Both the position numbers and the translations under genes were made by a program. Of a stretch of DNA of 64,000 bases, positions 1 to 61,083 are shown piece after piece (position 1 is the stretch's first letter; every line of letters starts with the position of its first letter). Below the pieces are notes generated by a model. The model ran no database searches. It was not told the DNA's origin and saw nothing but the letters and a program-made list of their open reading frames with translations. The stretch is from Candidatus Saccharimonadota bacterium (GTDB lineage: Bacteria; Patescibacteriota; Saccharimonadia; Saccharimonadales; SZUA-47): the NCBI GenBank assembly GCA_016700315.1, contig CP065013.1, forward strand, positions 257,449 to 321,448, read 5' to 3'.

Positions 1-113
1 AACTTGCTAGACCCTGGACCATAGTCCGTAGGAGGTACGGAGTAAGCAGTACGGGGTACGAGGTGATAATTGCTCGTCCCTAGACCCTAATCCGTAGTCC
101 CTAGCCCTAATCA

Positions 114-155
114 CTCTAACCTCTAACCTCTAACCTCTAACCTCTAACCTCTAAC
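114..155. repeat. Perfect tandem heptamer array (CTCTAAC)x6, embedded in a longer 7-nt-periodic tract spanning 8-160
   Basis: Read directly. Six contiguous identical 7-nt units. Flanking sequence is also in 7-nt register (CCCTAGA CCCTAAT CCGTAGT CCCTAGC CCTAATC). Confidence 0.95.
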
Positions 156-228
156 CTAATTTTGTCTCTTCTATCAACTATAAACCCCCTCTGGCGCTTT
201 TGCGTCTACCCCTGTAGAATATCTACAA

Positions 229-5418: not shown

Positions 5419-6233
5419 AGTCCTCCTTCGGGAAAATCAAGCTCGCTGCGAATGTTAGTTGGATCGCCTCTCTCTCCAATAACAATCCTAGCTAATCGGC
5501 CATCGTAACTAAGGCAGACCGAAACCCCGCCGGCTGGTTGTTCAATTGTGAGTTTATTCAAGCCTTCAATCTCTTGAGCATAATTGTCGACCGACTGGTT
5601 AAAACCAATTGTCGATGCATACAAAACAGTTTGCATCAAACCATTTTTTTGTGATGCAGCCGAGGCATCAAAGCCAGCCGCAACTGCCAACATACCATAC
5701 TCTTTAGATGGACTAGCATTATTGAAAATTTTTGTGACCCTTATACCAAACTTCAGTGGTTTATTTTCGTTAAGGTTTAGCCCAACTCCAGGGGTTGGAT
5801 CATAGGCCAACCTCGGTTTCATATCTATTACAGATGGTAGCGCTGCTTGTGAAAAGGGAGGTTTGACGCCAACCAAAGTACCCAACAAATATTGGCTCGG
5901 TTCAACACCATCAACATTAAACATCAGCACCTTCCCAACGGATGCACAACTATCGCTGCTGCCCTGTTCTTTACTCCCAGCCACAAACGCCACTCTCTCA
6001 AGTGCTCCGCTGCCTGACTTTGTACAGATTATATTGTTTTGCTTAGGGAAGAAACCAGAAGCAACGTCGTTAACAGCATCAGAAAACTGGTTCTCGGTCT
6101 CTCTAACGGCTTGCGAGTACTGCACTTGTTTCTGCCTTCCACCAATTGCAATGACCGCATATATAAACATTACGCTAGATACAGCCAAAAAAATCATGAC
6201 CTCTAGTATCGTGTATCCCCCACGCCTTTTCAT
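5409..6233 (-). CDS. Minor pilin, prepilin-type N-terminus (start moved to internal ATG)
   Basis: MKRRGG|YTILEVMIFLAVSSVMF begins at Met66 of the tracked ORF (ATG at 6231-6233). The upstream 65 codons run through a heptamer-repeat spacer and are unlikely to be coding. Confidence 0.75.
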   Translation of the reverse strand: MKRRGGYTILEVMIFLAVSSVMFIYAVIAIGGRQKQVQYSQAVRETENQFSDAVNDVASGFFPKQNNIICTKSGSGALERVAFVAGSKEQGSSDSCASVGKVLMFNVDGVEPSQYLLGTLVGVKPPFSQAALPSVIDMKPRLAYDPTPGVGLNLNENKPLKFGIRVTKIFNNASPSKEYGMLAVAAGFDASAASQKNGLMQTVLYASTIGFNQSVDNYAQEIEGLNKLTIEQPAGGVSVCLSYDGRLARIVIGERGDPTNIRSELDFPEGGLCG

Positions 6234-6393: not shown

Positions 6394-7206
6394 CTAGCTC
6401 CCAAAAACCAGCCGGCTATACCAGTCAACCAGCCGGTTACCCGCCAGCTGCACCACGATAGCAGATATTATCAACAGCGGCCCGTAGGGTATTTTTTTAC
6501 TCAAGCCCCATTTCTTATTAATAAGAAGAGGCAGTGACACTAAGGTGCCGATTATCGATGACAAGAAAACCAGTATAAACGCCGCTAGCGGACTACCAAC
6601 CAAAAGTCCGAGACCAAAACCTAGGATACTGTCGCCGTCGCCGATCCAGCGCCCTTTACTAGCCTTATACAGCAACCAGAAAAAGCCACCACATAAAATA
6701 CCGCCCAACAATGCAGAAAAAAGCCCCGTTACACTGAACATATGGCCCGCCCACAACTGTGCCGCAGCCTCTAGACCAGCAAAAATGATAAGCGCCCTCA
6801 TAAACCGCTCTGGTAACAAGCACCACGTCAGATCATACCAAAACAAAGCAGCCAGCAGTGGCAAAATAACTACTAACCACAATCCAAAATGCAACCAGGC
6901 GGCTATTCCTACTAATGGCAGCGGCCAAAACAGATATGAGGCAAGCGCTACCATGCCAAGACCCAGCTCAGCCAAGAATAATCTAGGATCTAACTTATGC
7001 TTACAAAAACGGCAGCGACCACCCAAAGCCAACCAGCTAAGCACTGGCACCATATCTAGAGCTCCCAGTAGCTTATGGCAACGATCACAGCTACTTCTGC
7101 CCCTTACCCAATCTTTACCGGCATGCGTCCGCCAAGCCAAAACAAGGCTAAAGCTGCCCAAAGCAGCCCCAAGCATAAAAACTACAAACCCCTCAATCAT
7201 AAGCAC
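6394..7206 (-). CDS. pilD: Prepilin peptidase (A24 family)
   Basis: Zinc-binding CDRCHKLLGALDMVPVLSWLALGGRCRFCKHKL, a polytopic membrane profile and Asp-containing GDGD motif. Confidence 0.9.
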   Translation of the reverse strand: MLMIEGFVVFMLGAALGSFSLVLAWRTHAGKDWVRGRSSCDRCHKLLGALDMVPVLSWLALGGRCRFCKHKLDPRLFLAELGLGMVALASYLFWPLPLVGIAAWLHFGLWLVVILPLLAALFWYDLTWCLLPERFMRALIIFAGLEAAAQLWAGHMFSVTGLFSALLGGILCGGFFWLLYKASKGRWIGDGDSILGFGLGLLVGSPLAAFILVFLSSIIGTLVSLPLLINKKWGLSKKIPYGPLLIISAIVVQLAGNRLVDWYSRLVFGS

Positions 7207-14376: not shown

Positions 14377-14427
14377 ACTTGAACTCCTAAGCGTATAGTC
14401 CCTAGTCCATAGTACATAGTCTTTGGC

Positions 14428-14600: not shown

Positions 14601-15655
14601 TCGTCCCTCTCTGCTAAGCCAGCCGCAACCGAGAACTGATGCGAAACTGTCATCAATTCGTTTTGTCTCTCTTGTCCAAACAAGATATTGCGCCAGGCGT
14701 TCCCGATCTCAACCGTTACAGCAAACTTGTTGGCAATATTAAGAGGTAATTCCGGTAATGTCGAAGCCGCTCCCGTCACTATAATCCGTTCCAGTTTTGC
14801 ATCGCCATAACGAGCACTAAAGAACTTAATCGACTTCTCGATCTCACTCATCAAAATTTCGACAGAACTAGCAATAGCGTTGTGAATCTGTCCTTCTAGC
14901 TTATCTTTGCTCATTCCAAACTTATAGACGAATTGCTCAGCCTGTTTTTCGTCGATCCCTAGGTTTTGCATAGCCGCTTTTACTATCCCTGTGCTACCAA
15001 TAGGTATCGTACGCATCAGTCTCGGTACTCCGCCCAGCACAACTATAAGATCACTCGAAACATCGCCCATGTCTACCATTAGCGCCGCACCCATGGCTGT
15101 CGGGTCTAACAATGCTCTGCTAATCGCCAAGCTATCTGGCTCAAAAGCAATTACGTTCAGCCCGATCGACTCGAGCATATCCAGGCGCTTCTCTACAAAA
15201 TCATTAGCCACACTCGAAATAAGCACCTCTACCTTGCTGGCCTCTTTGGGCGAATCACCCAGTAGCGCCCAATCAATCTTGCTCTCGCTAAGAGGTGTTG
15301 GGATCAGTGAATCAGCTTGGTATTTAATAGTTTTCGCTAAATCTTCAGGGCTCAATCTGTCGATGTCGACGACCGCCGAAAAAACTTTATTGCTTGGGAT
15401 ACCAACGGCCACGTTGTTAGCACTAATCCCTACTTCGCTAATCAGCTCTCTAACAGCCATTGCCACTTTTTGCTGATCAGCTGCCGCATCGCTTTGGCTA
15501 ATCTTAGAATCTATCGCTTTAGCCCCATATTTAAACAAGGTTCTTTGTGCGCCACCCCGAAGCTGCACAACTCGAATAGAGCTAGTGCCTATATCAAGCC
15601 CAAAGAAATCACTTTGCCCACTCAAGATACCCATATTGCTTATATTGTAAAGCAT
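14597..15655 (-). CDS. pilM: PilM, actin-like pilus assembly ATPase
   Basis: FFGLDIGTSSIRVVQL phosphate-1 motif, actin/FtsA-like fold length, and position upstream of pilN. Confidence 0.88.
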   Translation of the reverse strand: MLYNISNMGILSGQSDFFGLDIGTSSIRVVQLRGGAQRTLFKYGAKAIDSKISQSDAAADQQKVAMAVRELISEVGISANNVAVGIPSNKVFSAVVDIDRLSPEDLAKTIKYQADSLIPTPLSESKIDWALLGDSPKEASKVEVLISSVANDFVEKRLDMLESIGLNVIAFEPDSLAISRALLDPTAMGAALMVDMGDVSSDLIVVLGGVPRLMRTIPIGSTGIVKAAMQNLGIDEKQAEQFVYKFGMSKDKLEGQIHNAIASSVEILMSEIEKSIKFFSARYGDAKLERIIVTGAASTLPELPLNIANKFAVTVEIGNAWRNILFGQERQNELMTVSHQFSVAAGLAERDE

Positions 15656-15683
15656 AAGCTATTTCATGCAAAGCCTGAAATTA

Positions 15684-16162
15684 GCTAGTCCCTAGACCCT
15701 TGTCGGTTGTCCCTAGTTATCAAGCTAGACTTTTAGAAAGCTTAGTCAGCATTTTTTGTATAATCTCTAGTTCTTCAATTATTGCGGCTATTCCAATTTT
15801 ATAAATGTCTTCAACCATTATTAGTTGGGTCTCTAGTTCTGCGGCAGAGCCCGATGCTATTCGCAAGAAATGTTTAAACTCTTTGTCATTCCTCCTCCTA
15901 TAGCCCTCTGCAATATTTGAAGGTATGCTCACGCTCGATCTCTTCATCTGAGAAGATAGTGCAAAGTCTTCTGTCTTTAGCAATTTTCTACATACTAAGT
16001 ACACTTCCTTGACTAGCGATCGTGATCTTTGCCACACTTTAAGATCATTAAAGTTTTTATCCATAAACCAAATATAGATTACAAAGTAGGGATAAACAAA
16101 AGCGCTACGCGCTATCCCGTCATAAACGGCTACGGACTAGGGACTACTAGCTAGGGTCTAGC
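15684..16162. mobile_element. Four-helix-bundle gene cassette bracketed by inverted heptamer arrays
   Basis: Left array GCTAGTCCCTAGACCCTTGTCGGTTGTCCCTAGTTA (15684-15719). Right array GGCTACGGACTAGGGACTACTAGCTAGGGTCTAGCC (16128-16162). They share reverse-complementary TAGTCCCTAG / CTAGACCC words. Confidence 0.65.
15720..16064 (-). CDS. Four-helix-bundle protein (TIGR02436 / '23S rRNA intervening-sequence protein' family)
   Basis: LKVWQRSRSLVKEVY...SQMKRSSVSIPSNIAEGY.R....F..FLRIASGSAAELETQL is the family signature. Confidence 0.88.
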   Translation of the reverse strand: MDKNFNDLKVWQRSRSLVKEVYLVCRKLLKTEDFALSSQMKRSSVSIPSNIAEGYRRRNDKEFKHFLRIASGSAAELETQLIMVEDIYKIGIAAIIEELEIIQKMLTKLSKSLA

Positions 16163-16205
16163 CACCAAGCTTTTAAATCGGATCGACCGATTAAAAGCTT
16201 GGTGG
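16162..16205 (-). terminator. ~20-bp stem-loop whose one arm is the last codons plus stop of the 838-aa gene (3' stabiliser / terminator candidate, no U tract)
   Basis: CCACCAAGCTTTTAAATCGG-ATC-GACCGATTAAAAGCTTGGTGG. The arms are complementary apart from one bulged A. The right arm encodes ...PPSF-stop. Confidence 0.5.
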
Positions 16206-18707
16206 TAAGCTATTCACCGACTCATAATCTCTAAACTGATTCTCTGGATTATTAACTGCCCCAGCTGGACTAGACAGGTAAAATTCAGGTGTTAGACGTA
16301 TCGTCTCACCCGCCGTGGTAATCGAGCCAGCAAAGGTTTCGTTTGGCGTTGACTGGTTCATCGTTCCCGCCAGCCGCCACAAGTTCAGTTTATTAGTGAT
16401 CACCGCCCCGTTTATCTGTAGTCTCTTGTCAAGGCAAGGGTTGGGTGACATCAAGCTGACATCTGTATCTTTGTTGGCGTTACCCCTCGGATCTCCGGCG
16501 TTCAGCGCCTCGGCATAGCAAGTATAAAGCGTACCATTAGCCACCAAAACGCCGTCGAACCGCGCCAGCCTAGGGCTAATATATATATTACCCGTTGCCA
16601 CAATAATTAGCGACGGCATGTTGCCTACGTTTGTCCAACCAGCGTTGTTATAGGCAATTGCCGCGTCGCCGCTTGGTCCAATGTACGCATCACCATCTAC
16701 ATAAATCCTGTACTTACCACTCACTGCGCCACTAGTCGTGAAGTAAGTATCGCCATTATAGCGCTGCACTGTGCTGCTGCCAGCAGGAGCAGTCGACAGC
16801 GAAACCGCGCCGCCAGCAGCACCGCCAGCCGGCATATCTGCCAACCAATCGGCCGTACACATTGGGTAACCAGCACGGCCACCCAGGTCTTCCTCGGCAG
16901 TTATTGTGCTATTAAACGCCGTCGCATAAGAGTTGGCATCTGGGAAGGTGTTGGCTAGCACCCGCCGCTGCGGGAAAGCATTGTCGGCCCCATTCTGCGT
17001 ACTCGTTCTAAAGCCGGTTATGGAGCCTTGCGCCGTCGCAAGTAGCTGCGATCCCGAACCAACCAAAGCAAACGGATCATTAGCTGTCCGATCCAAGTAA
17101 GTTCTTATGCCAGCAAGCTCATTTGTCTGACAAACCCCTCCCTGCTCAAACCCCGACCCCGCAATCAACTCCCCGCTATAAGCCCTAAAATATGGATAAT
17201 TAGACACCGAGAGCTCCAACGCCGGCACAGAACCATTACAATTTACTACTGTTGCTCCATTTCTGACACTTGCCAGCAGCGGATATATGCCCGGAGGCTT
17301 GTTCACCGTTTGCTCCACAATAATATCGTTCGACGATTGCTGAGGCGTCAAGCTATTATTGCCATTCAGCCCATAGGTAGTATTCGTGGTAACTCCCGCA
17401 GCACCAATCGAGATTAGGTCGATGCTCAGTGGCCAATCAGAGGCAGTTATGTTGCTACCGCCAGTTGCTGCCTCGTTCGTTACTTTAGCAATAACTCTCA
17501 CCCTACCACTTGGCTGAACATTTGGCAGTACGCTATTAATGACTTGGTAAGACAATGTACAGCTCGGCGATCCAGTAACCACCGGGCAACTTCTATTGAG
17601 CGACGAGAGTGATTCGTCGAATGGCATCCACACTTGTAACCCGTTTCTGGCCCCTATATCCCAAAATACCCAAGAGTAGCCGTAGCCCGCCCTAACCGTT
17701 ATAGGGTACTGCACAAAATCATCGTTACCACTTGCGACCCCAAAGTCGGACCTACCACTAGGATTTATAGTTCTAACTATTGCTCCACTTGGGTCGTATT
17801 CATATACCAGCATTTTCGGCATACCTCGCGAATTGAGTGTACCAGGCGGGTTCGACCCGACATTGGCATCGGCATCATATACTTTGAGGAATATTGTCGA
17901 ATCGTTCTGAATAGTGCATCCAGGCTTAAACGACAATGAATACTCCAGATCATTATTGGTTGGCAAGTCGGTCTTCAAGGCAAAAGCCCCCAGGCCGGTT
18001 GGACCCAACAGGGCCTTTCGATTATTCTGCCAGTTGTTTTGATTATACTTATCTGGAGCACCGTTGGTAGCGTTTGACATAGGATCCGCATCAGAGCTAA
18101 ATCCTACATATGATTGCCCAGAAAGAGCATGTGCCGTAAGCTTGCAGACAACATCTGTCGTAAGAGGATTAATAATTTGTGCAACTACTTTTGTAGTCTT
18201 ATATACACCGTTAGATAACAAGAAATCACTCGGTTGAAAAGTAACTGTCTGGGTACCGGTACCAATGAATGTCGTATCCCTGACGATACCTACGGCATTA
18301 ACGCTGGTAGTAGCATGAGCACACAACCATACCTTGACTCTTATCTGCTGAGCTACAGTTGGCTGAGTCCCCGAGTAAAGTATGAATGACGCATTTGGAG
18401 TATGTAGCGTCGAGCCGGGCGAGCCGTCACTATTAGCATAATAAGATGAAAGATAAACATAAGAACCATTAACATCGGGCCAGGTCGCAGATGTTGTGCG
18501 CGGCACGTTATTACAGTTGTTCGAGGCATTCTTAGCTAGCCCAGTTCTAGGGAAGTCAACCGCTGGAGTTTTGAAGTTAGCGTTAGCGCTGTTAAAACAG
18601 CTTGGCAGCGCTGCTGCTTTTTCGCTGTTTAGTAGCACTGTACATGTAGCGATTAGCCCCAGCAGCACAGCAAACAGTATTGGCCTAGCAAACCTGAATC
18701 TCATCAT
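16191..18707 (-). CDS. Large secreted protein (838 aa) of unknown function, co-oriented with the pilus locus
   Basis: Signal-peptide-like N-terminus MMRFRFARPILFAVLLGLIATCTVLL. G/S/T/N-rich, with no recognisable catalytic motif. Start overlaps the stop of the TPR-like gene. Confidence 0.75.
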   Translation of the reverse strand: MMRFRFARPILFAVLLGLIATCTVLLNSEKAAALPSCFNSANANFKTPAVDFPRTGLAKNASNNCNNVPRTTSATWPDVNGSYVYLSSYYANSDGSPGSTLHTPNASFILYSGTQPTVAQQIRVKVWLCAHATTSVNAVGIVRDTTFIGTGTQTVTFQPSDFLLSNGVYKTTKVVAQIINPLTTDVVCKLTAHALSGQSYVGFSSDADPMSNATNGAPDKYNQNNWQNNRKALLGPTGLGAFALKTDLPTNNDLEYSLSFKPGCTIQNDSTIFLKVYDADANVGSNPPGTLNSRGMPKMLVYEYDPSGAIVRTINPSGRSDFGVASGNDDFVQYPITVRAGYGYSWVFWDIGARNGLQVWMPFDESLSSLNRSCPVVTGSPSCTLSYQVINSVLPNVQPSGRVRVIAKVTNEAATGGSNITASDWPLSIDLISIGAAGVTTNTTYGLNGNNSLTPQQSSNDIIVEQTVNKPPGIYPLLASVRNGATVVNCNGSVPALELSVSNYPYFRAYSGELIAGSGFEQGGVCQTNELAGIRTYLDRTANDPFALVGSGSQLLATAQGSITGFRTSTQNGADNAFPQRRVLANTFPDANSYATAFNSTITAEEDLGGRAGYPMCTADWLADMPAGGAAGGAVSLSTAPAGSSTVQRYNGDTYFTTSGAVSGKYRIYVDGDAYIGPSGDAAIAYNNAGWTNVGNMPSLIIVATGNIYISPRLARFDGVLVANGTLYTCYAEALNAGDPRGNANKDTDVSLMSPNPCLDKRLQINGAVITNKLNLWRLAGTMNQSTPNETFAGSITTAGETIRLTPEFYLSSPAGAVNNPENQFRDYESVNSLPPSF

Positions 18708-23775: not shown

Positions 23776-24514
23776 GTCAACATAAAAACCACGACCAAAG
23801 GTTTTTATGTTGACTTATAGGGGTAAGACTACTAACATGCGGGTATTATGGGCAGCGGGAATGCGAGAAAGATTAAGCCGAGCAGGCTCAGACCAAGGAG
23901 CCCTAGCAAGGAGCTTACTTCTAAAATAATTGAGTCCGTCTTGAGAGCTAGCGTTTTAGCTGGTTTTACCGCTTCTGCACTACTGATACCAAACTCTCCT
24001 ATCGCCCTAGAGAAACCAGTTAAATTCTTCCTAGATAAATTGGATCAGAAAGAAAAAGAGCGCCAAATCCGCCGCGTAATTACTGAGATGAAACGGCAAA
24101 AAATCGTCAAAGGAAGCTACGAACATGGTCTTGAGATAACCAATAAAGGACGCGAGCGACTAGCAAAACTAGATTACGACAAACTCGAGATATCTGAACC
24201 ACCTTCTTGGGATAAAAAATGGCGCATAGTACTCTTCGACATTCCTTTTAACAAAGATGAGAAACGTAGAGATTTGTCAGAGAAACTAAAACTAACTGGG
24301 TTTCAGTTACTCCAGCTTAGCGTATGGGTGCATCCGTACCCCTGCCGCGATGAACTAAACAAAATATGTGAGCACTTAGGTGTTGCTAAGTATGTTACCC
24401 TCATAGAAACTGCCCACATTGACCACGAAGAATTACTAAAAAAGCGCTTCAAAAATCTCAAATTACAGTAGTGTGTCAACATAAAAACCTTTGGTCGTGG
24501 TTTTTATGTCGTAC
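23776..24514. mobile_element. Single-gene cassette bounded by 35-bp perfect terminal inverted repeats, each itself a hairpin
   Basis: Left GTCAACATAAAAACC-ACGACCAAA-GGTTTTTATGTTGAC (23776-23814). Right GTCAACATAAAAACC-TTTGGTCGT-GGTTTTTATGTCGTAC (24475-24514). The loops are reverse complements, and 23780-23814 is the exact reverse complement of 24475-24509. Confidence 0.7.
23848..24471 (+). CDS. PaaX-like regulator (winged helix plus Cas2/VapD-fold C-terminal domain)
   Basis: WDKKWRIVLFDIPFNKDEKRRDLSEKLKLTGFQLLQLSVWVHP matches the PaaX C-terminal pattern (W..W.lv.f.ipe..R..R..L...GF..l..svWv.P). A wHTH-like region lies upstream. Confidence 0.65.
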   Translation: MGSGNARKIKPSRLRPRSPSKELTSKIIESVLRASVLAGFTASALLIPNSPIALEKPVKFFLDKLDQKEKERQIRRVITEMKRQKIVKGSYEHGLEITNKGRERLAKLDYDKLEISEPPSWDKKWRIVLFDIPFNKDEKRRDLSEKLKLTGFQLLQLSVWVHPYPCRDELNKICEHLGVAKYVTLIETAHIDHEELLKKRFKNLKLQ

Positions 24515-30470: not shown

Positions 30471-31244
30471 TTAACGCAAGCTTTTTAGCATATAAAATCG
30501 CTCGACGTTTCCTTTGCTACCGGCAAGTCCAGAATCAGCTTTGTCAACTATTTTGAACAAATTTTGTACCCAGCTTTCGAAGTCGTGAATAATTTCGCGA
30601 CGAACTTTGCTATTTTTGATTACACCCCTGTTAATTTGCTCCTTGCCTGCTTCAAACTGAGGCTTGAGCATAGCTATGATTAATGTTTTGTTATTAACGA
30701 ATAAAGAGATGTGAGGTAGTATTTTTCGCATCGAAATAAAGCTCACGTCAATCACTACTATGTCTGGTACTTCGGAGAGTACTACTCTTCGTTCCTCGTT
30801 CTTCGTTCCTCGTTCTATTTGGCTACTTTGTAGCCAAATCTCACGAATATCAGTCTTTTCGTGCAGTTCAATTTTGGGATTTCCTAACAGTGTTGGGTGA
30901 AGTTGATCCGTGCCAACATCAACTGCAACAACTTTACTAGCACCATTTTGCAGTGCAAAATCCGTGAAGCCTCCCGTGCTACTGCCCACGTCCAAAACGA
31001 CTTTATTTGTAAAATCTAGCCCTAGCTCTCTCGCTACAGAAGCCAGCTTCTCGCCTGCTCGTGATACGTACTTTCCTGCTGTAGCTGAAACTACAATTTT
31101 GTCACTAGCTGAAACCTCGAAAGCCGGTTTTGTAATAACATTACCGTTAACTCGCACCGTGCCGCGCTTAATCAAATCCTCGGCCCTAGACCGCGACTGA
31201 GTCTTGCCTGACAAAAATAAAACTTGATCAAGCCGCCGCTTCAT
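30471..31244 (-). CDS. tlyA: TlyA-family 16S/23S rRNA (cytidine-2'-O)-methyltransferase
   Basis: N-terminal S4 domain (RLDQVLFLSGKTQSRSRAEDLIKRGTVRVNG) and FtsJ-type SAM motif VLDVGSSTGGFTD. Confidence 0.88.
   Translation of the reverse strand: MKRRLDQVLFLSGKTQSRSRAEDLIKRGTVRVNGNVITKPAFEVSASDKIVVSATAGKYVSRAGEKLASVARELGLDFTNKVVLDVGSSTGGFTDFALQNGASKVVAVDVGTDQLHPTLLGNPKIELHEKTDIREIWLQSSQIERGTKNEERRVVLSEVPDIVVIDVSFISMRKILPHISLFVNNKTLIIAMLKPQFEAGKEQINRGVIKNSKVRREIIHDFESWVQNLFKIVDKADSGLAGSKGNVERFYMLKSLR
30787..30839. repeat. Intragenic module inside tlyA: heptamer array (CTTCGTT CCTCGTT)x2 plus adjacent 9-bp-stem hairpin ATTTGGCTA-CTTTG-TAGCCAAAT
   Basis: Read directly. Translated in frame as WLQSSQIERGTKNEERRVV. 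Confidence 0.9.
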
Positions 31245-33123: not shown

Positions 33124-33169
33124 TGTAAAAATCCTCCTGATTTTTAGATTAATGTTTGATGATTAACGA

Positions 33170-33543
33170 TTAAAGAATCTTTTCACCGTTAACCTTTATG
33201 AGTTTTATTAAAGCCGCTTTTAGTTCTTCTACTTTTGATATTAACTCTGCTTCCAAAACGCTAGAAAGGTAGTTTGTTTTTTTGATATTCCTATCTGAGC
33301 TTCTAGTTCAAATAATGAGCCGAGTGCATGTCGATAAAACTGCTCTTTCTCTCTGGCACTTCTTCTGCCAAAGCCTTCTGCGATATTAGATGGCAAAGAT
33401 ACAGCAGCTCGTCTCATTTGCGAAATCAAGCCAAAAACTTCTTCTTTAGGAAAAGCCGAAGTAACTTGGTAGACACTCAGACAAATAGACTCCGAAATCT
33501 GCCAAACCCTTAAGTCTTTAAAGGACTTTATCGTCGTACTCAT
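33170..33543 (-). pseudogene. Four-helix-bundle protein gene with a -1 frameshift in an A7 run (or homopolymer sequencing error), between ssb and rpsR
   Basis: LRVWQISESI...SQMRRAAVSLPSNIAEGFGRRS...ALGSLFELEAQ is the family signature. After the A7 run (T7 at 33277-33283 on the plus strand) the +1 frame stays open for 37 codons (KTNYLSSVLEAELISKVEELKAALIKLIKVNGEKIL-stop at 33170-33172), restoring a typical ~124-aa length. Confidence 0.6.
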
Positions 33544-33585
33544 TCTTCGTAAATCCTTAATCGTTAATCTTTAATCAACTAAGGC

Positions 33586-43675: not shown

Positions 43676-44383
43676 CTAGATATCTTCAATAGTTTTAGCA
43701 TCTTTTACTTCATAGCCTCCGATTTTCGTACGTCGAAGCTCAAGACAGTAAGCACCCGTACCAAGTTCTTTGCCAATATCTTCCGCAAGGGTACGAATGT
43801 ATGTGCCGCTGGAGACATGGGCACGTACTTTTATTTCTGGCCAGACGTACTCAAGCAGCTCCAGGCTATAAATCGTTACTTGGCGTGGTTTCAGTTCGAC
43901 TTTTTTGCCCGCCCTAGCAAGCTCATAAGCCTTTTTGCCGTTAACCTTGATAGCCGAATACTGCGGCGGCACCTGCGTGATCTCACCAACAAACTTAGCT
44001 AGCGCCTTTTGTACCTCTTCAGTAGATGGTAGATGGTAGTTAGTAGTTGGAGTGGCTTCTCTTCGTTCATCGTTCAGCATCCCTCGTTCTGTGATTTCCC
44101 CTTCCGGATCACCGGTCGTCGAGACAGCCCCAAGTCGAAAAGTCGCCTCATAGACCTTATCTTGCTTCATAAACTCGTCCTGACGCTTCGTGGCACTGCC
44201 AATCAGGATTATCAGCAGCCCCGTAGCAAAAGGATCGAGCGTGCCACTGTGGCCTACTTTTAGTTTCTGTTTACCGTTTACTGAGGACTGAGGACTATTT
44301 TTTCGTAAATCAGAGCGGATTTTGGCCACCACATCAAAACTAGTCCACCCCGATGGTTTATCTATCAGAATTACTTGATCCAT
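43676..44383 (-). CDS. truB: tRNA pseudouridine(55) synthase
   Basis: KVGHSGTLDPFATGLLIILIG catalytic Asp motif, and QVPPQYSAIKVNGKKAYELAR. Confidence 0.92.
   Translation of the reverse strand: MDQVILIDKPSGWTSFDVVAKIRSDLRKNSPQSSVNGKQKLKVGHSGTLDPFATGLLIILIGSATKRQDEFMKQDKVYEATFRLGAVSTTGDPEGEITERGMLNDERREATPTTNYHLPSTEEVQKALAKFVGEITQVPPQYSAIKVNGKKAYELARAGKKVELKPRQVTIYSLELLEYVWPEIKVRAHVSSGTYIRTLAEDIGKELGTGAYCLELRRTKIGGYEVKDAKTIEDI
44022..44088. repeat. Intragenic heptamer arrays inside truB: GTAGATG GTAGATG GTAGTTA GTAGTTG (44022-49) and CTTCGTT CATCGTT CAGCATC CCTCGTT (44061-88)
   Basis: Read directly. Translated in frame as ERGMLNDERREATPTTNYHLPST. The E. coli TruB sequence as I recall it is about 14 residues shorter here. 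Confidence 0.85.
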
Positions 44384-58374: not shown

Positions 58375-61083
58375 TCATAGCTCCCCCCATGTTTTACCGG
58401 TGGATATGTCTACACGCAGTTTTACGCCCAGCTCTGGATAAATATTTTCCATAGTCTGCTTCATCATTTTGCCAACCCGCTCAGCATCAGCTTCGGCACA
58501 TTCAACCAAAATACTGTCATGTATCTGCAATATCTGTCTCGGCTCTTCCTCGTTCCTCGTTCCTCGTTCCTCGTTCCAGTGTCTAAATTGGCTTTCTAAT
58601 TTAGACATTGCCATCTTGGTTATATCAGCAGCGCCTCCCTGAATTGGCATATTGATTGCGGCCCGCAAAGCTGCCTCACGTACGACAAAATTGCTGCTCC
58701 GAGCATCCGGCGTTGGGCGGCGACGTCCGAGCGGCGTCTCCACAAAACCTTTGTTTTTGGCTTGGTCACGAAAACGCTCCATCATTGCCTTCAGTTTGGG
58801 GCGCACCTCGAAGTATTTATCGATAAACTTTTTGGAATCGGCGTAGCTCATGCCCGTTCCTTCACTGAGTCCGTGAACACCTTGCCCATACAAAATACCG
58901 AAATTAACAGCTTTGGCCGCGTAGCGCATCTCTTTGCTGACTTCTTCGGGCTTGACACCTTGAACCAAAGCGGCCGTCTCGATATGAATGTCTCGATCAG
59001 AGTTAAACGACTCAATCATTGCTTGATCACCGCTCAGTGCCGCGGCAATGCGAAGCTCAAACTGACTGTAGTCGGCACTCACCAATACATTGCCAGGCTC
59101 GGCGATAAAGCCAGTTCTGATCTCTCGACCAATTTCGGTGCGGATAGGAATGTTCTGCAAGTTGGGATCGTTGCTACTAAGCCGGCCAGTTGCTGCGACC
59201 GTCAGCGCCAGTGTTGTATGTATACGATTGTTCTCATCTACCTGCTCTGGCAGCGTATCTACGTAGGTACTTTTGAGCTTTGTGTACTCACGATATTTCT
59301 CGATATCGTTGATGATCGGGTGAAGGTCTTTTAGTTTAGCGAGTACGTTACTGGCTGTGCTGAAGTGGCCAGCCTTCCCTTTCTTGCTTGCGATTGTAGG
59401 CAAGTTTAGCTTCACAAACAAAATATCACTCAGCTGGCTAGGACTTGAGATATTAAACTCTTGGTCGGCATAGCCATAAATTGTTTGTTCAATGTCACTA
59501 ATTTGATCTGTTAACTTGTCAGATAAAACCTTGAAAAAGCTTGGCTCAATCTTCACCCCAGTACGCTCAATTCGAGCTAAGACTGGTATCACTGGCCAGT
59601 CCACTTGCTCGGCCATTTTGATCAAACTTGTAACCTCGCTCATTTGCTCACCCTGTCGCTCAGCAAGCCCCCGGATCACAGCGCAGATTTCTGGTAGCTT
59701 AATTAGCGCTTCATCATCATCAATATTGTCGAGCTCACCAGCGTAGTTTAGATCCTCGCTCGCAAGCGCCGTAAGCGAAAAATCTCGCCTCAGAGAATTA
59801 ACAATAAATGCGCCAACTTGTGTGTCGTGGCTTACCTGCGGCAAGTTTTCTATCCCAAGCTCGAGTAAAATTTGAAAGATATTCTTTAAATCGTGCCCGG
59901 TAACGGCTTTGCCGTTTAGTAGTTGGTCGATGGTAGATGGTAGATGGGAATTAGCTACTGATTTTCTTAAATCAAAAATATAGCAATTTGTTTTGTCAGA
60001 TAGCGCCAAAACAGTTGGCTCGTGACCGTGCTTACCACTGCTGCGAGCAAAAATTACTACATCCCCTTCAAGCTGCAGCGATGACACTGCGGAGCTCTCC
60101 TGAACGTAGACAGGTGTCGGGGTTTTGAGATCGAGGATTGCCGCACTTATGTTTGACGAAAGGTCATTTGTCGATTCTGCAACTGCTACTTTGGACGAAT
60201 CACTACGCATTCCTTGTGGCAAGTTGCGCAGCAGGCTCCTGAACTCTAGGCGCTTTAGTATGCTTGCCAGCTCATTCGTATCTAGCTTATTTATGTCCAT
60301 TTGTTCAAGGTCCAGCTCGATTGGCGCATCTGCGTAAAGTCGAGCAATTTCTTTACTCATGTAGGCCGAATCTCGCCCCGCTTCAAGCTTTTTCTGTACT
60401 GCGCCCTTGGTGAGAGCAACATTCTCGTAAACACCATCGAGAGTTTTGTATTGTTTAAGTAGTTCAACCGCTGTTTTTTCACCAATGCCAGGAACACCGG
60501 GAATGTTGTCCGACGAATCGCCTTTTAGAGCTTTTAAGTCCAGAAATTGCTCAGGCTCGAGGCCGTATTTATCACGAAATTGTTCTGGCCGATAAAGCTC
60601 GATATTTGTTAGTCCTTTTTTGAGCGCATAGACATGGGTGTTCTCGCTAATGCACTGCAGTGCATCAAGATCACTGGTGATTAGCATTGTCTCTAACCCG
60701 GCGGCATCAGCTTTTTTAGCCAGGCCACACATAATATCGTCTGCCTCGTAATCATCGAGTTCGTATAGCGGCCAATTTAGTGCTCTTAGCAGCTCGTGAA
60801 GAATAGGAATTTGTACATAAAAGTCTGGCGGTGCCGGCTTTCGTCCTGCCTTGTAGTCTGGGTAGACGGCTAGTCGTTTTCGGATATTGGTTTTTGGTTT
60901 ATCCCAAGCTACACAAACATAATCTGGTTTGAGCCGCTTAATCAGCTCCAGCGCCATTGCTGCGAAGCCATAAACTCCCCCTGTTGGCGTCCCGTCGGCG
61001 GTCGAAAGCCCCGGCATCGCGTAATAGCCACGGTAAAAGACTGACTTTCCGTCGATAATCGCAAGTTTTTTTCTACTCTCCAT
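58375..61083 (-). CDS. polA: DNA polymerase I
   Basis: 5'-nuclease domain, DYSQFELRIAA (motif A), KAVNFGILYGQG (motif B) and QIHDSILVE (motif C). Confidence 0.94.
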   Translation of the reverse strand: MESRKKLAIIDGKSVFYRGYYAMPGLSTADGTPTGGVYGFAAMALELIKRLKPDYVCVAWDKPKTNIRKRLAVYPDYKAGRKPAPPDFYVQIPILHELLRALNWPLYELDDYEADDIMCGLAKKADAAGLETMLITSDLDALQCISENTHVYALKKGLTNIELYRPEQFRDKYGLEPEQFLDLKALKGDSSDNIPGVPGIGEKTAVELLKQYKTLDGVYENVALTKGAVQKKLEAGRDSAYMSKEIARLYADAPIELDLEQMDINKLDTNELASILKRLEFRSLLRNLPQGMRSDSSKVAVAESTNDLSSNISAAILDLKTPTPVYVQESSAVSSLQLEGDVVIFARSSGKHGHEPTVLALSDKTNCYIFDLRKSVANSHLPSTIDQLLNGKAVTGHDLKNIFQILLELGIENLPQVSHDTQVGAFIVNSLRRDFSLTALASEDLNYAGELDNIDDDEALIKLPEICAVIRGLAERQGEQMSEVTSLIKMAEQVDWPVIPVLARIERTGVKIEPSFFKVLSDKLTDQISDIEQTIYGYADQEFNISSPSQLSDILFVKLNLPTIASKKGKAGHFSTASNVLAKLKDLHPIINDIEKYREYTKLKSTYVDTLPEQVDENNRIHTTLALTVAATGRLSSNDPNLQNIPIRTEIGREIRTGFIAEPGNVLVSADYSQFELRIAAALSGDQAMIESFNSDRDIHIETAALVQGVKPEEVSKEMRYAAKAVNFGILYGQGVHGLSEGTGMSYADSKKFIDKYFEVRPKLKAMMERFRDQAKNKGFVETPLGRRRPTPDARSSNFVVREAALRAAINMPIQGGAADITKMAMSKLESQFRHWNEERGTRNEEEPRQILQIHDSILVECAEADAERVGKMMKQTMENIYPELGVKLRVDISTGKTWGEL
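58548..58607. repeat. Intragenic module inside polA: perfect (CCTCGTT)x4 plus adjacent 10-bp-stem hairpin TGTCTAAATT-GGCTTTCT-AATTTAGACA
   Basis: Read directly. Translated in frame as KLESQFRHWNEERGTRNEEEPRQ, just upstream of motif C. Confidence 0.92.
59917..59951. repeat. Second intragenic heptamer array in polA: TAGTAGT TGGTCGA TGGTAGA TGGTAGA TGGGAAT
   Basis: Read directly. Same unit family as the truB and rpsF-leader arrays. Translated as ANSHLPSTIDQLL. Confidence 0.85.

Follow-up and report, generated by a model that had tools for sequence, protein, structure and literature searches.

This study concerns a 64,000-nucleotide (nt) stretch of the genome of a Saccharimonadales bacterium (assembly GCA_016700315.1, contig CP065013.1, positions 257,449 to 321,448; hereafter the window), in which a minus-strand gene for a 114-amino-acid (aa) four-helix-bundle protein of the PF05635 family lies next to pilM between two convergent arrays of degenerate heptamers. 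On balance, we favour reading this gene and its arms (cassette 1) as an insertion module of the intervening sequence (IVS) type, whose arms are members of a population of repeats like the short tandemly repeated repetitive (STRR) heptamers of cyanobacteria, and which is organised like the REPIN-RAYT systems. The arms belong to a genome-wide array population that also has solo members, hairpins without an open reading frame (ORF) and in-frame members, which by the logic of REPIN-RAYT points to a family of repeats accompanied by a protein gene. The four-helix-bundle protein is the probable trans-acting partner of the heptamer arrays.

Heptamer arms of the four-helix-bundle family

The cassette 1 protein matches PF05635 at 116 bits (cut-off 33.8, E 1e-33, residues 7-107 of 114; Pfam) and TIGR02436 at 115 bits (cut-off 24), which confirms the membership in the 23S IVS protein family proposed in a first-pass annotation of this DNA. 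Its nearest solved structure is XCC0516 (2GSC, E 3e-14), which has five chains of one sequence, and a homopentameric four-helix-bundle fold is therefore predicted by sequence homology. An identical copy of the protein is present in the same context on 7 further contigs. On the forward strand, the left flank (15684-15719) reads CTAGTCC/CTAGACC/CTTGTCG/GTTGTCC/CTAGTTA and the right flank (16128-16162) GGCTACG/GACTAGG/GACTACT/AGCTAGG/GTCTAG. A repeat search recovered from them an inverted repeat of 26 nt, 81% complementary (15692-15717 and 16136-16161), and the bracketing by reverse-complementary heptamer arrays seen at first pass is thus real.

A second family member, cassette 2, occupies the spacer between ssb and rpsR (43% protein identity to cassette 1). 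As the first-pass annotation had stated, its flanks are complementary and differ from those of cassette 1; they are GATTAAY-type arrays with a perfect 13-nt complementary pair (GATTAACGATTAA / TTAATCGTTAATC). This copy scores 101 bits against PF05635 and 89 bits against TIGR02436, with the match ending at model position 82 of 106. Its open part (33241-33543) encodes 100 aa equivalent to model positions 1-82 of 106, and helix 4 follows in the -1 frame after a frameshift at a run of seven A residues (A7) near 33240 (within 33230-33262). The A7 run is common to four other assemblies, two of which carry a further 1-nt deletion in helix 4 (L216/L218, about 2326-2328), so that cassette 2 is a decaying pseudogene. 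Programmed -1 frameshifting at A AAA AAA C, considered as an alternative, was ruled out by this second helix-4 frameshift. In cassette 2 and its counterparts, the arms are kept while the ORF decays.

Chance complementarity was assessed by scoring inverted repeats between 2062 pairs of intergenic pieces from the same window, which gave a median of 14 and a 99th percentile of 22.4. The flanks of cassettes 1 and 2 score 27 (top 0.6%) and 28 (top 0.5%), respectively, and the 95th percentile for 54 other window genes is 19. Complementarity beyond that of random spacer pairs, the yardstick named at first pass, was thus found at both sites.

The same architecture recurs across the family. Querying metagenomes with three aligned family members yielded 80 loci at 39-60% identity, and flank statistics were compiled for 81 non-redundant family genes. 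Their median flank score is 31 and 77% of them score at least 22, whereas the median is 14 for other genes in the same loci (6% at least 22), for other genes in related Saccharibacteria (0.4%) and for other window genes (4%) (Mann-Whitney p = 5e-20). Viral contigs follow the pattern (a score of 22 or more for 61% of 31 family genes), as do plasmids, with GGTGTAG/CTACACC arms in Nostoc punctiforme and GGTTCAA/TTGAACC arms in Riemerella. Plasmid-borne family genes are concentrated in Nostoc, Calothrix and Anabaena, which are the classical hosts of STRR heptamers. The suggestion that two cassettes of one architecture with different flanks exceed a chance association can therefore be widened: this is the normal layout of the whole protein family.

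Nearly each locus has its own unit (AGTGGCC, AGCGTGA, TCAGCGG, GTTTCAA, AGGGTTT, CGTCGTG and others). Rotational alignment nevertheless brings out a common n-n-T-A-G-T-g core (G 89%, A 70%) with a total information content of 2.91 bits, compared with 2.18 +/- 0.07 in column-permuted controls, none of which (0 of 200) reached the observed value. Within arrays, the four core positions are conserved at 0.75-0.90 and the three other positions at about 0.65, so that arm-arm stems are periodically imperfect. Of 28 cases, 27 have a G-rich 5' arm. Two candidate observations were dropped: arm polarity as a clue to gene orientation, since an inverted repeat reads alike from either strand and polarity is a property of the arm pair, and the related TAGGG units of the 62-65% identical homologues in L168 and L169, since TAG is the family-wide core.

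The family genes are under strong purifying selection (ratio of non-synonymous to synonymous substitution, dN/dS, 0.03-0.16; 81 of 84 genes full length) and are generally not decaying passengers. None of the 40 metagenome family loci scanned for rRNA context lies in rRNA, and an Rfam gathering scan of the window returned one tRNA and no rRNA. The annotation name "23S rRNA IVS protein" is therefore misleading.

Orthologous sites and the genome-wide array population

In none of 80 other Saccharibacteria species does a family gene occupy the interval from the large upstream gene to pilM. In the two nearest relatives (L008 and L009, 79% PilM identity), the spacer upstream of pilM is 245 nt long and retains the promoter core. 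Similarly, at the site of cassette 2, the sequence between ssb and rpsR in three relatives (80-83% SSB identity) is unrelated and contains neither a family homologue nor arrays. In L075, which is more distantly related, the next spacer along (rpsR-efp) holds a family gene. The proteins closest to that of cassette 1 (62-65% identity) are encoded in different surroundings; for instance, cassettes fill two successive spacers of one Saccharibacteria contig, rpmE-[cassette]-prfA-[cassette]-prmC. Both cassettes are missing at orthologous sites in relatives and are thus lineage-specific; the presence/absence variation anticipated at first pass exists, and strict synteny does not. Eleven near-identical contigs, with unchanged unit copy number and few single-nucleotide polymorphisms, are an uninformative set for strain-level dynamics.

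Period-7 arrays are abundant in this genome. Thirteen strong arrays were counted in the window, or 24 under a more permissive threshold (15 of these 24 within the non-coding 14% of the window), as compared to 0-1 at other periods from 4 to 12 and none in shuffled sequence. At the rate found in 762 kb from related species, 0.67 strong arrays would be expected in 64 kb (Poisson p = 5e-13), and the array density is about 20 times that of related-species DNA. The flank arrays noted at first pass are real, but similar arrays also occur away from the two family genes. Around family genes in metagenomes, the array density outside the cassette is 9.3 per 100 kb, a co-occurrence counted on short loci and not on whole genomes. 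Solo arrays resemble the arms of their own locus: a similarity of 0.6 is reached by 37% within the locus and by 5.6% against other loci (p = 8e-6).

Arrays of one unit recur in the window (CTACCAT three times, TTCCTCG twice, GTACGGN three times, TAGTCC four times). Units of the cassette 1 type reappear at 73-110 and in a solo array in the pil operon spacer (Table 1), whose similarity to the arm at 15684-15712 is 0.58 (window median 0.41). The first of these lies in a composite block of at least three unit types just upstream of tRNA-Arg(CCT) (229-303), which is cut by the window edge, and a further upstream cassette is thus possible. Between ftsK and rpsF, two facing arrays form a hairpin with no ORF (-44 kcal/mol, z = -6.1), in which 5-bp helices are broken every 7 nt. 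In the locus L095, another ORF-less hairpin lies 1.5 kb from the cassette of that locus and has the same arm sequence. Further arrays lie in frame within polA, truB and tlyA and are translated as short peptide insertions (HLPST and NEERGT motifs), with one unit appearing in different genes. In comparison with solved TruB proteins, the truB segments fall in gaps, and the tlyA segment adds 18 residues that the closest relatives lack, so that the in-frame arrays are true insertions.

Table 1. Positions of the two cassettes, their signals and the related heptamer arrays in the window
Feature	Position	Strand	Basis or context
Cassette 1 gene, PF05635/TIGR02436 four-helix-bundle protein, 114 aa	15720-16064	-	profile search
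Cassette 1 5' arm, ~5 degenerate heptamers, CTAGACC CTAGCTA GTAGTCC CTAGTCC GTAGCC (coding strand)	16128-16162	-	sequence and fold
Cassette 1 3' arm, TAGGGAC AACCGAC AAGGGTC TAGGGAC TAGC (coding strand)	15684-15719	-	sequence and fold
Small terminator-like hairpin (AGCGCGTAGCGCT, then T run) between 5' arm and cassette 1 start codon	16101-16113	-	consensus-scan match only
Perfect 15-bp hairpin adjoining cassette 1 5' arm	16162-16205	-	repeat search
Sigma-70-like site before pilM, TTTGCA-17-TACAAT, directly downstream of 3' arm	15644-15672	-	consensus scan
Cassette 2 gene, PF05635 pseudogene between ssb and rpsR	33170-33543	-	profile search
Cassette 2 5' arm, GATTAAA GATTAAC GATTAAG GATTTAC, ends 6 nt before ATG	33545-33581	-	sequence and fold
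Cassette 2 3' arm, TTAATCG TTAATCA TCAAACA TTAATCT, overlaps stop of restored frame	33146-33179	-	sequence
Solo array, cassette 1 unit type, ATAGTCC CTAGTCC ATAGTAC ATAGTCT	14390-14426		pil operon spacer
Composite arrays, CTAGACC-, GTACGGN- and TCCCTAG-type, then CTCTAAC x6	1-163		near tRNA-Arg(CCT)
ORF-less inverted-array hairpin, AGTTRGT x5 facing CTACCWT x5, 9-nt loop	34902-34994		between ftsK and rpsF
In-frame arrays in polA, NEERGTRNEEEP and NSHLPSTID	58537-58586, 59914-59957
In-frame arrays in truB, NYHLPSTEE and KNSPQSSVNGKQ	44018-44053, 44264-44298
In-frame array in tlyA, ERGTKNEERRV	30783-30820

On the minus strand, the order around cassette 1 is the 838-aa gene, the 15-bp hairpin, the 5' arm, about 60 nt, the 114-aa ORF, the 3' arm, the promoter-like site and pilM. 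The 838-aa gene (16191-18707, minus strand) is without a Pfam match. One half of the hairpin is formed by the final 15 nt of this gene (PPSF-stop) and the other half is their inverted copy; it has no counterpart in the closest relatives L008 and L009, and may have been left behind by the insertion or have arisen as a new terminator. In both of these relatives, which lack cassette 1, the ATGCTTTACAAT core of the pilM promoter-like site is kept. The first-pass proposal that the cassette separates operon halves fails for cassette 1, because its position between the hairpin and the pilM promoter-like site leaves no operon split. The longest pilM ORF starts at 15655, and homologues align only from residue 8 onward (MGILSG). 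Because the additional codons run into the conserved -10-like element, the true start is probably the ATG at 15634.

Some further observations concern these sites and repeats. The ssb-rpsR spacers of L206 (3475-3660), L207 (1320-1440) and L209 (3480-3600) share a conserved block (CTGCACATT...GTGCTCG...) that looks foldable, and a second block, ahead of rpsR, is common to L207 and L209. In L095, a unit of about 130 nt (GAAAGAAAATYGCCTTCTTGCGTGTCTACTA followed by an inverted-array hairpin) occurs twice, alone and directly before the family gene (893-1020 and 2355-2465), with small opposite-strand ORFs between the two that look HicA/HicB-like by eye. In L094, a family cassette (2358-2974) sits between two co-directional tRNA genes, i.e. 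inside a tRNA precursor transcript. An unrelated hairpin family (GTCAACATAAAAACC...GGTTTTTATGTTGAC) occurs in the window at 23776-23814, 24475-24512, 2078-2111 and about 20586. Two of these hairpins bracket, in inverted orientation, a 207-aa gene (23848-24471) with a weak Cas2-like match (PADLOC E 2e-6), and the other copies resemble shared terminators.

RNA-level, slippage and regulatory explanations of the arms

A different explanation, to which we give a real but minor chance, places the module purely at the RNA level: the arms would pair in the transcript, RNase III would release the cassette mRNA and thereby separate or stabilise the flanking messages, and the DNA repeats would be incidental. 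Excision by RNase III has been shown for rRNA-borne relatives (PMC4990558). The predicted minimum free energy and centroid folds of cassette 1 and the predicted centroid fold of cassette 2 are closed by arm-arm pairing, and pairing and cleavage are thus, by analogy, a reasonable property to expect of the module. In addition, the family gene follows a co-oriented gene in 63 of 72 cases (background 76%) at a median spacer of 54 nt, which leaves little promoter room, so that many copies are probably expressed by read-through; cassettes are found inside argB-argD and rpmE-prfA-prmC and between tRNA genes. However, the whole-cassette folding z-scores are modest (-2.5 and -1.65), and the mismatches in the arms do not have the signature of a selected RNA stem. 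Selection on a stem in the sense transcript should retain G·U and remove A·C mismatches, whereas 48 arm pairs (1581 aligned positions) contain 67 G·U and 87 A·C mismatches, with no wobble excess, and the RNA stem was not adopted as the primary selected feature. Cassette 1 also lies outside an operon interior, solo arrays are unstructured in folds and occur within coding regions as well, and the arrays flanking one family gene (L134, see below) are direct repeats.

The RNA module of the first-pass annotation is thus upheld as far as its arms close a predicted stem, but it does not account for arms that belong to a wider repeat population. Arrays that also occur solo, as direct repeats, around ordinary genes and inside coding sequences mark the arms as members of a DNA repeat population and not as a dedicated RNA stem. 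The lack of a G·U excess, the unstructured solo arrays, the direct arrays and those around the pilT-like gene, and fast-changing units with matched arms together point to DNA-level homogenisation or co-generation of the arms.

We consider it improbable that the arrays are a generic product of replication slippage in the spacers of certain genomes, where PF05635 genes merely persist with no functional link. Such an origin would suit arrays in the many spacers and genes that have no family gene nearby, the site-to-site variation and rapid turnover of the units, and the ordinary gene bracketed in the same manner in L009. It fails for reverse-complement arms around 77% of family genes and at most 6% of other genes in the same loci, for a phased TAG-T core across unrelated loci and phyla, and for the G-rich 5' arm in all but one of the cases. 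Less probable still is an autoregulatory or insulating unit devoid of mobility, with arrays as operator-like or translation-control sites (a hidden ribosome-binding site, stops in three frames): the 5' arm of many loci does stop 2-25 nt short of the start codon, leaving the ribosome-binding site in the gap, and TAG-containing heptamers would, from their period and core, close all three frames with stop codons within 21 nt, but many units are without a stop codon, and neither presence/absence at orthologous sites nor ORF-less hairpins with the same arms, dispersed solo arrays and in-frame polA, truB and tlyA arrays are explained.

Under the favoured reading of an IVS-type insertion module with STRR-like arms, cassette 1 would have inserted between the end of the 838-aa gene and the pilM promoter-like site in this lineage, and a second, now decaying copy would have replaced the ssb-rpsR spacer. 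The STRR-like array population would have expanded in the same lineage, giving rise to solo arrays, ORF-less hairpins and in-frame insertions. The PF05635 protein, a homopentamer in solved relatives, would act on the heptamer arrays, and arrays and gene would move or persist together at the DNA level. Where transcribed, the arms may pair into an imperfect stem open to RNase III cutting, and the classical 23S rRNA intervening sequences would be the special case of a module landing in rRNA. A more specific version, which we regard as rather doubtful, is that the homopentamer binds about five heptamers of single-stranded nucleic acid, one TAG core per protomer, and maintains or spreads arrays of its own unit to spacers, rRNA and coding genes. 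If true, this would be a replicator analogous to REPIN-RAYT, built on a non-enzymatic-looking four-helix bundle.

Several observations weigh against the favoured reading. No nuclease or recombinase domain is recognisable in the PF05635 protein. Unit similarity follows protein similarity only above about 80% identity and is at background below it, and with such fast unit turnover there is no evident fixed code by which proteins would recognise units. The analysis found no near-identical copies of the gene at separate sites, the nearest non-self homologue being 65% identical, so that recent gene transposition lacks support; no target-site duplication or empty-site junction was definable, because the relatives' spacers are too divergent to align. 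The reliance of the co-occurrence statistics on short loci belongs here as well. In L134 (2450-3480), identical direct arrays (GGGATTA x4) lie on either side of the family gene, and an inverted partner array beyond a second gene suggests a two-gene cassette. In L009, inverted arrays of CATCGTT and GACGAAC (6010-6049 and 7153-7186) bracket an ordinary gene. Judged from its sequence, the product of that gene resembles the type IV pilus retraction ATPase PilT.

Relation to known systems

To our knowledge, the PF05635 family has been without an assigned function since its discovery in 23S rRNA intervening sequences in about 1993, and we know of no explanation for the tandem heptamer repeats of cyanobacteria since 1990. 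The family is very large, with more than 7,500 matches from one query among the matches listed. If gene and repeats form one system, the puzzles of the protein family and of the heptamer repeats would both become directly testable. Such a system would also explain the form of rRNA intervening sequences, the short peptide insertions in housekeeping enzymes of the candidate phyla radiation (CPR) and cyanobacteria, and operons interrupted by such small genes. The protein family, its rRNA intervening sequences with inverted termini and the cyanobacterial heptamer repeats are already known separately. Apparently new are the convergent heptamer arrays as family-wide flanks in CPR, cyanobacteria, Bacteroidota and viral contigs, a TAG-T core common to the units and the co-occurrence with a genome-wide array expansion into coding sequences; we did not find these described in a search of the later literature. 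No published link between STRR or heptamer repeats and a specific protein gene was found beyond the heptamers of the Coxiella IVS, within the same bounds of the search, and a prior description is possible.

Among known systems, neither cassette protein matches an anti-phage defence family in PADLOC (E <= 0.01). The accessory protein Avd of diversity-generating retroelements (bAvd, PF22296) is of the same structural superfamily, and the cassette 1 protein matches its model weakly (19 bits, cut-off 40). bAvd, a basic homopentamer, binds nucleic acid in partnership with a reverse transcriptase. Template and variable repeats, in contrast, are not evident at the cassette, and in L001 the Pfam matches of the called genes around the cassette, over about 2 kb on its upstream and 5 kb on its downstream side, include no reverse transcriptase, a scan that did not extend to the whole window.

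The 23S rRNA intervening sequences with an S23p/PF05635 ORF (Leptospira, Coxiella burnetii and others) contain the same family, with the ORF looped between terminal inverted repeats. In the Coxiella IVS, three GACAGAT heptamers lie next to the S23p ORF, at the 5' base by the RNase III cut site, and the termini are inverted repeats (PMC4990558). Tandem heptamers are thus common to the Coxiella element and the cassette arms, and the ORF decays both in Coxiella S23p and in cassette 2. Unlike these elements, cassette 1 lies outside rRNA, with the 838-aa gene and pilM as neighbours, as do all the metagenome loci scanned, and the family genes analysed here are under strong purifying selection.

The STRR heptamers of cyanobacteria were reportedly described by Mazel et al. 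in 1990, and STRR1 and STRR3 are said to read CCCCAGT and CAACAGT. Like the arrays of the window, they are tandem period-7 arrays of few units each, mostly intergenic, with several unit families per genome, and a (C/T)AGT core is shared with these STRR1 and STRR3 sequences. The host here is a member of the Saccharibacteria (CPR) and not a heterocystous cyanobacterium, and the units differ (CCTAGTC, GATTAAC, CTACCAT and others).

REPIN-RAYT systems (PMC3116915, PMC3337134, PMC5581495) have a protein gene with inverted copies of a short repeat on either side, and further copies of this repeat are scattered through the genome. The cassettes differ in that the protein is a four-helix bundle without an HUH/Y1 (IS200/IS605-like) transposase domain, with matches only to PF05635 and weakly to bAvd, and in that the repeats are tandem heptamer arrays, some of them in frame inside genes, and not single palindromes. 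Both have in common an inverted flanking repeat that is dispersed in the genome, a repeat variant specific to the gene, a low gene copy number and non-autonomous inverted pairs.

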